Shown here: piece after piece, positions 1,817 through 4,323 of the stretch
Numbering within the stretch: position 1 is the stretch's first letter
How the letters are laid out: each line of letters starts with the position of its first letter
Assembly: GCA_964523015.1 (NCBI GenBank)
Contig: CAZFXN010000001.1
Coordinates: 76,423 to 140,422 of the forward strand
DNA: 64,000 nt
Direction of reading: 5' to 3'
Source: an uncultured Bdellovibrionales bacterium
GTDB lineage: Bacteria; Bdellovibrionota_C; UBA2361; J135
Program-made: the position numbers and the translations under genes
Notes under the pieces: generated by a model
Seen by the model: only the letters and a program-made list of their open reading frames with translations
Told to the model about the DNA's origin: nothing
Database searches by the model: none

Positions 1817-2350
1817 ATGAAAACTCAGTTATTTCAAATTGATGCCTTCACCCCCACCCCACTTAGTGGCAACCCAGCTGCAGTGATCCCACTGCCCTAC
1901 ATGCTCAATGACAATACACTCCAGGCCTTAGCAAGTGAGAATAATTTATCAGAGACTGCATTTATTGTAGGTAAAGATGGTGAGTACGATATTCGCTGGT
2001 TTACACCAACCGTAGAAATCGAGCTATGCGGACATGCCACACTTGCAAGTGCTTTTGCTGTATTCAATTAACTCGAACCAAATCTAAGCACCGTTCATTT
2101 TGACTCAAAAATTCATGGAAGACTTACGGTAACCCGCCACTCCAATCTACTTACCATGAACTTTCCTACTCGCTCTTATACTCCGATTGAAAATCTAAGT
2201 GAGTTTGAGTTAGCTTTAGGTCGTAAACCCCTTCAAGTTTTCAAAGGTAAGGATATAATGGCTGTTTTTGGATCTGAGGATGAGATTAGAAATCTTTTCC
2301 CCGACTTTTCAAAAATTAAAAAAGTTGATCAATATGAGTTAGTAGTATGA
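1817..2350 (+). pseudogene. PhzF-family isomerase (phenazine biosynthesis-like) pseudogene, with an in-frame TAA at 2069-2071 and C-terminal truncation
   Basis: The N-terminus MKTQLFQIDAFTPTPLSGNPAAV...NNLSETAFIV...IRWFTPTVEIELCGHATLA is classic PhzF/YddE. The same frame continues after the TAA (ORF 2156..2350) with the middle portion of the family. The conserved C-terminal third of the family (the ...DPVTGSA... region) is absent. Confidence 0.65.
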
Positions 2351-2877
2351 TACAAGAGGGACTAACACCTACACCACAATCTGGATCTCTTCGCATCAGC
2401 GAATCCAATACAATTGCAACTCGACCACCATTAAACGAGAAAGCAATTTTTAACGCAGCCCTTCAGCACTTTACTGAGGAACGTCTTTCAGAACTAGATA
2501 ACAGGAGAAGCGAACTCCGATCGGCAATTTTTAAAAACTGGGACCTGTGCGTTAGTGCTTCGGCAAGGGTAGTGCCCATGACACCCATTAAAGAATTTAT
2601 TGCTCTTAGAAGAGTACTTGCAGGATTTGGGTACACACCGAAAGGCATTCTAGCTCAAACCCAAACAGAGGTATTGCTGTTAAAGAAAGAGAATATCGGG
2701 GCTTGGCTGGATCCAATTGTAACTCCCATTGCTCGTCTCTTCGATATTGATCGTCCAGTTCAGGGATTTACAGTTCAAAGAGCTATTAACCAATTGACCC
2801 AGATTCCACTCAAGGAGATTTTAAAATGGGCACGTGATTATCGCTCATTGGCTGAAGCAGAAATGATAGACACCTAG
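2347..2877 (+). CDS. Hypothetical protein, possibly the N-terminal portion of a longer ORF interrupted by a TAG at 2875-2877
   Basis: This ORF is in the same frame as 3016..4323, and the frame stays open from 2878 to 3016. I recognise no domain. Confidence 0.3.
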   Translation: MIQEGLTPTPQSGSLRISESNTIATRPPLNEKAIFNAALQHFTEERLSELDNRRSELRSAIFKNWDLCVSASARVVPMTPIKEFIALRRVLAGFGYTPKGILAQTQTEVLLLKKENIGAWLDPIVTPIARLFDIDRPVQGFTVQRAINQLTQIPLKEILKWARDYRSLAEAEMIDT

Positions 2878-3015
2878 CGGAAAATCAGTTTAAGACTCCG
2901 AGTCGCTCATTCAATTACAGCAGCTAATGAGTCCAGATTATTTCCGCCTGATACATTCACTGAACTTAATACCAGACTAGATCAAGGCATCAGGTTAGCG
3001 CGTGGCAGTCTCGAT

Positions 3016-4323
3016 GTGCTTAAAAATCTAACGACACCTGAACTAGCTTGTCAGACTAGGGAATTTAAGGAACTCATGAGCCAACTGGCAAAAGAAATGA
3101 TTCCTATTGATAATTTATTTGAAAGCATCTCTGAAAAAATGAAAGAACCATGTCACCTTTCAAGCAGTGATATACAGGCAATTCAAAAGCAGACTGATGA
3201 GTTGGTCGAAAAAATAACACTAGCCGAGAGCACAAAAAATTCACCGTGCAATCAGGTAAAATATTTACTGCAAACGGCCATCAGTGCAACAAATGTATTG
3301 GGTCGACTGAAGACGGGAGGCAAATCTGATCATCTCCAAGATCTGCTCTTTGAAAGGAGAGAGCAGGCATTATTATCCTTAGTTGGGTTAGAACCGACTC
3401 AGGTGCGGTATGAGTTGGAACACTTGGGTCCTCATGCTAGATATCTACATCGACATCCTATAGTTCAAGAAATTCTTGATGACTCCTCTGAACAACCATT
3501 TGAGCAGTCATTAGAACAACCTTTGGTTGAGTCTGACCGAGAGGAAGATTTAACTAGCGATAAACAGCAATTACAAATCCAACACCGGAAGCGTCAAATT
3601 ATGAAGACGCTAATTTCATCATTTCGATTGCCGATGGAAACAGCAGAACAAATCGCATCAAAAATTTCACCAGAAGCAATGGAAAAAAGAGAAGCCGAAT
3701 TGAGTGTACTATTTGGCCGCTCTACACCTGCCATTCTTCGCAATGATCCAAAAGCCCTAACAATTCCAGATCCAGTATTTGAAAGATATACTTGCGTAGC
3801 GCAAGAAGTACTTTCGGCCCTCTCAGAGCTCGATAGTAAAGGGATTCTTTCAAGAGTTAATCCAGATAGAACTGGAAGCGCGTTTACTCCAAACGGAATT
3901 CAAGGTACACGCACGTTGGTACTTAGCCTCAGTGGAGCAAGAGAAACGCTTCTCCTATTAGCTACAAAGCTACACGCACCTAAAGAGAGCTTATGGAGAG
4001 AATTTCTAACTGGCTTGGAGCAGGCACATGCCCAAAATTCAGACGAAACTCCCATTGAGATTGCTAATAAAATCGCCAACTCTGAATTCCCTAAAAAGTT
4101 TCCTGAGGATCTAAACGGGTTAGCCATAAGAAAACTAACCGCCGTTTTTGCTGCAACTACTTTAGATCAAATCCGCCAATTACCCGGTAATAAACTTGAA
4201 GTATTTCACGACCAGCGCCATACAAACGCAACCTATTTTATCCGTATAAACGATCTTTGGCGGGTCGGCTTTAGGTTTAATTCTGGGCGATCAACAGAGG
4301 TATCATTAATTAATTATCATTAA
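3016..4323 (+). CDS. Protein with a C-terminal HigB-type (Rts1 killer-protein / PF05015-like) RelE/ParE-superfamily toxin domain fused to an unknown ~340 aa N-terminal region (GTG start)
   Basis: The last ~95 aa, ...LPGNKLEVFHDQRHTNATYFIRINDLWRVGFRFNSGRSTEVSLINYH, aligns closely to HigB of Rts1 (...YWSITVRANWRITFQFINGDAYILNYEDYH). No HigA-like HTH ORF lies downstream. Confidence 0.6.
   Translation: MLKNLTTPELACQTREFKELMSQLAKEMIPIDNLFESISEKMKEPCHLSSSDIQAIQKQTDELVEKITLAESTKNSPCNQVKYLLQTAISATNVLGRLKTGGKSDHLQDLLFERREQALLSLVGLEPTQVRYELEHLGPHARYLHRHPIVQEILDDSSEQPFEQSLEQPLVESDREEDLTSDKQQLQIQHRKRQIMKTLISSFRLPMETAEQIASKISPEAMEKREAELSVLFGRSTPAILRNDPKALTIPDPVFERYTCVAQEVLSALSELDSKGILSRVNPDRTGSAFTPNGIQGTRTLVLSLSGARETLLLLATKLHAPKESLWREFLTGLEQAHAQNSDETPIEIANKIANSEFPKKFPEDLNGLAIRKLTAVFAATTLDQIRQLPGNKLEVFHDQRHTNATYFIRINDLWRVGFRFNSGRSTEVSLINYH

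Follow-up and report, generated by a model that had tools for sequence, protein, structure and literature searches.

The window analysed here is a 64-kilobase (kb) stretch of DNA from an uncultured Bdellovibrionales bacterium (contig CAZFXN010000001.1), and the gene of interest runs from 2347 to 4323 on its forward strand. The gene ends in a HigB-like domain and is probably a nonsense-inactivated copy of a rare, undescribed long HigB-like family, lying in a cluster whose three genes are all damaged. The cluster appears to be undergoing loss, and the window gene most likely makes no functional product. HigB and GraT are textbook small toxins, kept harmless by a partner antitoxin. Five intact relatives of the window gene encode proteins of 538–667 amino acids (aa) in which a helical body is joined to a HigB-like end, none of them with an adjacent HigA antitoxin gene.

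Intact relatives of an interrupted gene

Exhaustive phmmer searching returned 261 matches in total. Five are intact long proteins, with similarity along almost the full query and the HigB-like domain at their end (E 6e-45 to 5e-5): P0006 (605 aa), P0007 (666 aa), P0008 (667 aa), P0009 (538 aa, with a 611-aa member in its cluster) and P0123 (659 aa). P0008 is NCBI MEZ4754359.1, from a Bdellovibrionota metagenome-assembled genome (MAG), and P0123 derives from a biofloc aquaculture MAG. The long relatives were detected only by this exhaustive HMMER search. Word-index homology searches with the 658-aa read-through protein or with the family alignment retrieved only the protein itself, and a genome-collection scan with the window protein gave no relatives; no part of the full alignment was sufficiently conserved to serve as a query there. 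With the C-terminal alignment, the genome-collection scan yielded only two standalone HigBA loci (L008 and L009, kept as controls), and a metagenome scan found nothing. These sequence comparisons indicate that what lies behind the window copy is a rare, undescribed multidomain HigB-like family. A novel toxin-domain fusion, one of several options raised in a preliminary description of this DNA, is thus correct at the level of the gene family. In public records, P0008 is auto-named ‘type II toxin-antitoxin system RelE/ParE family toxin’, a label that reflects nothing but the ~90-aa C-terminal domain and obscures a multidomain, antitoxin-less architecture.

Family members share one layout: they begin with ~30 disordered residues, continue in an all-helical body of ~550 residues and finish with the HigB-like domain. 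Body identity between members is only ~20–24%; the C-terminal domain shares 42–55% among the five closer members. AlphaFold2 modelling, with a family alignment of six sequences, gave a mean predicted local distance difference test score (pLDDT) of 77 and a predicted template modelling score (pTM) of 0.43; the junction of body and domain is predicted with high confidence and not as a floppy linker. Across the six long proteins, Pfam places PF05015 in all (best E 6.4e-8) and no other family consistently. We found no meaningful match to the body in the PDB or among viral structures, no match on plasmids or phages, and no PADLOC defence-system model that fits it. At phmmer sensitivity the body co-occurs only with the HigB-like domain, with no alternative C-terminal domain.

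From ATG 2347 to 4323, the window gene is a single frame of 658 codons, its sole interruption being TAG 2875–2877; 176 codons precede this amber triplet (codon 177) and 481 follow it, up to the stop at 4321–4323. Translation bears out the preliminary description in treating the upstream open reading frame (ORF; 2347–2877) and the frame running to 4323 as one, split by the TAG only. The extent given there does not stand: read from 2284, the frame is already closed by stops at its codons 2, 12, 15 and 19, and the length is 658 codons from ATG 2347, not ~680. TAG terminates nine of the 42 confident ORFs in the window and is therefore an ordinary stop here; reassignment of the codon was considered and rejected on the same count. 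Joint alignment pairs the upstream ORF with the N-terminal stretches of P0007 and P0008, and a P0007 region matches window 2338–2874 with a BLASTP E of 7.7e-14; the ancestral gene was therefore ~660 codons long and is cut here by the amber codon.

Public annotation covers only a 435-aa ORF that begins at GTG 3016 (P0001). This start lacks a Shine-Dalgarno motif and sits within a predicted helix (205–226); a further candidate, ATG 3076, has AAGGA 4 nucleotides (nt) upstream. The GTG 3016 ORF is best explained as a gene caller’s rescue of the 3' fragment after the nonsense mutation, which makes the 435-aa ‘protein’ an artefact. Whether GTG 3016 or an upstream start is used had been left undecided in the preliminary description; the former is disfavoured, and the frame starts upstream at ATG 2347.

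A HigB/GraT-like domain without an antitoxin

Homology of the C-terminal domain to HigB and GraT is secure. Around 250 standalone HigB-like proteins of ~93 aa align to the final ~85 residues (phmmer, E≤1e-3, the best being 9e-10), and the closest solved relative is GraT (PDB 6F8S chain B, E 3e-8). A domain profile reaches GraT with an E of 7e-31 and Proteus vulgaris HigB with an E of 4e-13. On the window protein the PF05015 match reaches 24 bits, short of the gathering score of 27 (E 5.6e-5; positions 21–85 of the 91 in the profile), and an NCBIfam scan of the long protein gave no match. The last ~75 residues are predicted by AlphaFold2, mostly with pLDDT values of 84–93, to form helices 587–602 and 606–610 and strands 617–620, 629–633, 638–645 and 648–656. 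The predicted fold is thereby that of a microbial RNase (BECR), with two helices and a four-stranded sheet. Foldseek overlays the predicted domain on GraT with a target template modelling (TM) score of 0.86 and a root mean square deviation of 2.2 Å, and on P. vulgaris HigB with a target TM of 0.65. The earlier wording of an ‘unmistakable’ PF05015 domain of Rts1 type therefore needs two adjustments: the HigB/GraT homology is sound but the Pfam score falls below the gathering threshold, and the domain is homologous to P. vulgaris HigB but has GraT, not Rts1 HigB, as its nearest solved relative. All of the 120 closest domain relatives in an index of 5.8 billion proteins are 67–159 aa long, so the long architecture, as these lengths indicate, is a rare offshoot of ordinary HigB-like toxins.

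Catalytic positions were mapped by combining a profile-to-PDB alignment with published experiments on P. vulgaris HigB (PMC5027501). Four of the five positions are kept. Arg73, Tyr91 and His92 of HigB are retained as Arg639, Tyr657 and the C-terminal His658, and His54 corresponds to Glu618, a glutamate shared with GraT and with every aligned standalone relative except one. None of these four residues varies among the six long proteins. The fifth, Asp90, is changed to Asn656. Its equivalent is Asp in 12 of 12 aligned standalone relatives; the window protein and its four closest long relatives have N, N, N, K and N, and D occurs only in the most distant member, P0123. In HigB, D90A reduces cleavage 77-fold and abolishes toxicity, and Asp90 has been proposed to support the orientation of Tyr91 (PMC5027501). 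The long family additionally has a longer, different loop in place of the G-D-R loop of the standalone toxins, whose first strand has no counterpart. The active site looks largely maintained but modified.

The absence of an adjacent antitoxin, as first described, was confirmed. No ORF of at least 30 aa lies in 4324–4622. HigA probes were taken from the canonical HigBA loci L008 and L009 and detect each other at E 3e-13; tblastn with them against the 64-kb window found nothing (best E 0.6), as did searches of the available sequence (up to 8 kb) around the five homologues. The genes called beside the long gene at the five homologue loci include no HTH (helix-turn-helix) family. A HigA-like segment hidden in the body was also considered and rejected, hhalign of the family profile against HigA giving a probability of 0.2%; no HTH or ribbon-helix-helix (RHH) Pfam family occurs in more than one of the six members, and none is significant. 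With no antitoxin across the family, the HigB-like domain would have to be harmless in its producer.

The control loci show the ordinary arrangement. The HigBs of L008 (Terriglobia MAG) and L009 (Cyclobacteriaceae MAG) are 35–36% identical to the window domain and share the subtype motif R-[IV]-N-D-L-W-R-[VI]. The former is 93 aa long and the latter, as listed, is an ORF of 60 aa from the first start codon; both end in D-Y-H. Each is directly followed by a HigA HTH gene of 102–103 aa, and no such gene is present in the window or at the long-homologue loci.

Set beside the characterized toxins, GraT (Pseudomonas putida GraTA, PDB 6F8S) and P. vulgaris Rts1 HigB (PDB 4MCT, 4PX8 and 5IXL) are homologous to the C-terminal ~87 residues of the window protein, with the same predicted fold. 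The antitoxin-binding helix motif of GraT/HigB, RKL..v..A.tLd.lr.pPGN, is also kept in the window domain (GraA contact residues on GraT from PMC6393540). Unlike these standalone proteins of ~93–98 aa, the window gene has 658 codons and its homologues 538–667 aa; the family has no HigA/GraA gene and does not form a bicistronic toxin-antitoxin operon, and the window copy is interrupted by a stop. The window domain further differs in having Asn in the D-Y-H motif, an altered G-D-R loop and no counterpart of the first β-strand.

Multidomain RelE-superfamily proteins as such are already known. A 2025 survey by Gerdes of multidomain BECR-fold toxins describes HigB–HigA-like single-gene fusions, PtuZ (PIN-like plus BECR) and the membrane-anchored ToxM (PMC11980606). 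Like these, the long proteins carry a RelE-superfamily domain within a larger protein, and the BECR domain of PtuZ is also C-terminal, attached through a helical linker (PMC11980606). Unlike the fusions, the long family has no HTH or RHH antitoxin domain by hhalign or Pfam; unlike PtuZ and ToxM, it has no PIN-like domain, transmembrane segment, or PtuA-like ATPase or nuclease neighbour. The survey left out multidomain proteins with no identifiable antitoxin or with too few members (PMC11980606), and the long family belongs to that excluded set. By the defining features examined, the window gene classes as neither a type II toxin-antitoxin module, nor a toxin-antitoxin fusion, nor a polymorphic toxin.

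The gene cluster, its decay and the mqnE repeat

Both partners of the long gene are broken (Table 1). On the opposite strand, the regulator matches residues 62–319 of the 322-aa regulator of locus L004 (1733 to 960, 62% identity, tblastn); a stop at 1742 closes its frame, in which ATG 1316 is the first start codon. The PhzF remnant carries PF02567 on its first 84 aa only (E 7.5e-28) and matches residues 1–177 of the 265-aa L004 PhzF at 53% identity (tblastn), with TAA where L004 has Tyr. Its stop overlaps the long-gene ATG (ATGA). No trace of the last 88 PhzF residues was found anywhere in the window by tblastn; a PhzF 3' remnant downstream of the long gene was entertained and rejected, that region being the decayed mqnE 3' end.

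L004, the P0006 locus, is arranged as in the window, with the AsnC-type regulator on the opposite strand, PhzF, and the long gene abutting the PhzF stop; the partners are intact. The long protein of the window is only 27% identical to its L004 orthologue, against 62% and 53% for the neighbours; the long gene therefore evolves at a much higher rate than the two beside it. ORFs of at least 120 aa cover 83% of the window, and 1317–2346 is among its two largest ORF-free gaps, which together place the decay locally, in this cluster. The preliminary description had also offered a decaying module; this is true of the window copy, where the amber codon lies inside a region homologous to intact N-termini and both partner genes are broken.

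A pair of direct repeats brackets the regulator–PhzF–long gene cluster, the left copy within mqnE (assigned by TIGR03700, E 8.6e-55). The repeat core is 57 nt (336–392 and 4357–4413, 84% identity), and similarity continues to ~100 nt in all and can also be seen in the translations. Within the window the pair matches at a blastn E of 2e-12, against 0.04 for the next-best match. A segment of ~4 kb appears to have been inserted into the 3' end of mqnE and to have decayed since. At L004 there is no flanking repeat comparable to the mqnE duplicate of the window. Immediately past the right repeat lies a 281-aa ORF (4623–5468, reverse strand) with no Pfam or NCBIfam match.

Table 1 Features of the long gene, its cluster and the flanking repeat (window positions)
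Feature	Position	Strand	Remarks
Direct repeat, left copy	300–410	+	Inside the intact 3' end of the mqnE (aminofutalosine synthase) ORF 40–486; proposed att-like left boundary
AsnC/Lrp-type regulator remnant	924–1739	−	Lacks the N-terminal ~61 codons (first HTH)
PhzF-like pseudogene	1817–2350	+	In-frame TAA 2069–2071; lacks the last 88 of 265 codons
Long gene, 5' fragment	2347–2877	+	176 codons plus TAG; disordered N-terminus and first body helices; predicted helices 31–175
Amber codon (codon 177), probably inactivating	2875–2877	+	E, K, E, E and N at this column in intact homologues
Long gene, remainder	2878–4323	+	481 codons; contains the annotated 435-aa ORF P0001 (GTG 3016 to 4323)
HigB/GraT-like domain (PF05015, RelE superfamily)	4060–4320	+	Residues ~572–658
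Degraded second mqnE 3' end	4340–4435	+	19-nt gap relative to the first copy; STKIYSIDVVEDQHPT against MqnE STKIYSMAGAEDQHPT; proposed right boundary

Downstream of the long gene, the genes are unrelated between the five homologue loci and often lie on the opposite strand. At L003, the P0008 locus, conflict-type genes occur 3–6 kb upstream (1604–5220): a canonical Gp49 (RelE-fold) and HTH pair, RadC, and a nucleotidyltransferase paired with an NTase-substrate-binding protein. L004 has an AbiEii/DUF2204-like nucleotidyltransferase at 470–1170, apparently split into two small ORFs, and near these fragments a 51-nt direct repeat (124–174 and 740–790, 80% identity); together they suggest further decay or rearrangement beside the syntenic cluster.

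The window has a GC content of 38.8% and carries type III export, futalosine-pathway and β-oxidation genes. A type III secretion-like set occupies 41468–48260 on the reverse strand, comprising a response regulator, a tetratricopeptide repeat protein (42730–43311), SctV/FlhA-like and FliN/SctQ-like proteins, an SctJ/FliF-like lipoprotein and a sigma-28-like factor. The SctV/FlhA-like protein is short (615 aa) and matches the 584-position model PRK05910 end to end, and the sigma-28-like ORF (47511–48260) overlaps the SctJ-like ORF (46727–47629) by ~120 nt. Best hits to PRK05910, PRK05911 and PRK05926 were initially taken to point to Chlamydiae, a reading weakened by the free-living type of metabolism encoded in the window and by the Bdellovibrionota label of P0008. 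The largest gap in the window with no ORF of at least 120 aa is a 1.2-kb interval at 36057–37254. An Rfam scan of the whole window at gathering thresholds gave no match.

Explanations for the locus and the family

For the window copy, the amber codon in a region homologous to intact N-termini, together with two broken partners, argues for a gene inactivated by a nonsense mutation in a cluster being lost. As the long gene carries one lesion only, and all family-invariant residues are still present, inactivation would be recent. The same sparing of the gene also weighs against this account, as do several other points. Read-through, a minority allele or a restart product may, on sequence alone, still provide a protein. 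The three assemblies that carry the TAG are sequence-identical, probably stem from one project and are not independent. The insertion model has a single repeat pair behind it, no integrase is present, and among the contexts recovered for six members the linkage to PhzF is seen only in the window and L004. At the family level, restraint in cis, set out below, draws on a model with a pTM of 0.43 and a six-sequence alignment, and Asn in place of Asp might keep activity or might signal a non-nuclease role.

In the intact relatives (P0006–P0009 and P0123), the HigB-like domain would be the functional core, and its harmlessness to the producer would be explained most economically by restraint from the body combined with attenuation. 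The bulky, apparently rigidly attached body would keep it out of the ribosomal A site, making the protein independent of an antitoxin through restraint in cis, and the change of Asp to Asn or Lys should lower its activity. A precedent for restraint by bulk is GraA, which silences GraT through steric hindrance of its access to the ribosome (PMC6393540). The domain would then act only after release or delivery, and the protein could serve as an exported toxin or as a single-chain sensor-toxin. The exported-toxin option is raised by the member from a Bdellovibrionota MAG. A more far-reaching reading, possible though doubtful, is that these relatives form a new class of antitoxin-free single-chain HigB toxins: the fast-evolving ~550-residue body would replace the antitoxin and keep a still-competent ribosome-dependent RNase inactive until a trigger releases it, and the window copy would be a recently killed member. 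Candidate triggers could be export into prey or host cells, given the Bdellovibrionota member and the type III export genes of the window, or the sensing of an invader, as in single-chain sensor-toxin defence proteins. The SctV-, SctJ- and FliN/SctQ-like genes lie ~40 kb from the long gene, whose residues 1–27 are Ser/Thr/Pro-rich and predicted to be disordered; no chaperone-like neighbour stands beside it.

The main alternative at the family level, which we regard as rather unlikely, is that the HigB-like domain is no longer a nuclease and has been exapted for binding RNA, ribosomes or proteins within a non-toxic protein, so that no antitoxin is needed. Asp90 gives way to Asn or Lys in every long protein but P0123 and in none of the 12 standalone relatives, which would fit such a loss, since D90A abolishes HigB toxicity (PMC5027501); the replaced G-D-R loop and the missing N-terminal strand would fit as well. 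Against it, Glu, Arg, Tyr and His are kept at their positions without exception in proteins that share only ~25% identity overall, which suggests selection on the active site, and Asn could still form the hydrogen bonds proposed for the supporting role of Asp90 (as may be deduced from PMC5027501).

Two further alternatives concern the window copy, and we judge both improbable. The split gene could still function, its 435-aa (GTG 3016) or ~415-aa (ATG 3076) product being an orphan toxin checked in trans or by low expression. In favour of this, all 481 codons of the 3' part are open and every family-invariant residue is kept, ATG 3076 has its AAGGA, and public annotation calls the 435-aa ORF. 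However, GTG 3016 has no ribosome-binding motif and falls inside a helix, the regulator and PhzF partners are dead, and all intact relatives are full length. The 75-nt spacer before the PhzF remnant holds no forward-strand promoter-like site; those detected on this strand are internal to the long gene (3085–3114 and 3350–3379) or at or beyond its 3' end, and their overall count is not above that of shuffled sequence. Neutralisation of an orphan toxin in trans, proposed in the preliminary description, is unsupported, antitoxin absence being family-wide and the window having no HigA-like sequence. Similarly improbable is an amber codon that is not real or not terminal, through sequencing or assembly error, a minority allele or read-through, such that the full-length 658-aa protein is made. 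The lesion is single amid otherwise perfect conservation, the source is a MAG whose consensus can hide variants, and the E or K at this column in intact relatives is one substitution from TAG. But the NCBI contig, the JGI assembly and the Logan assembly all show the identical TAG, which serves as a normal stop in this window; no tRNA of any kind was found there, and both neighbours carry independent inactivating lesions, pointing to decay of the whole cluster.

A classical polymorphic toxin or contact-dependent effector, with a trafficking N-terminus, an exchangeable C-terminal toxin and a downstream immunity protein, is very improbable: the toxin domain does sit at the extreme C-terminus of a large protein, and domains of the RelE (BECR) fold do form the toxic tips of some polymorphic toxins, but Pfam finds no trafficking or repeat domain in the six members (of types such as Rhs, PAAR, LXG or filamentous haemagglutinin), no Sec-type signal is evident on direct reading of their N-termini, at phmmer sensitivity the body carries no other C-terminal domain, and with downstream genes that differ at every locus there is no conserved immunity gene, so the polymorphic architecture first suggested is unsupported.

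For this genome the gene is of little import, its locus being a decaying remnant. The family is another matter. Here a HigB domain with most of its catalytic residues conserved persists across distant proteins without an antitoxin, joined to a large, novel helical body, which raises the question of how a ribosome-dependent RNase stays safe without an antitoxin, and of what use it then is.

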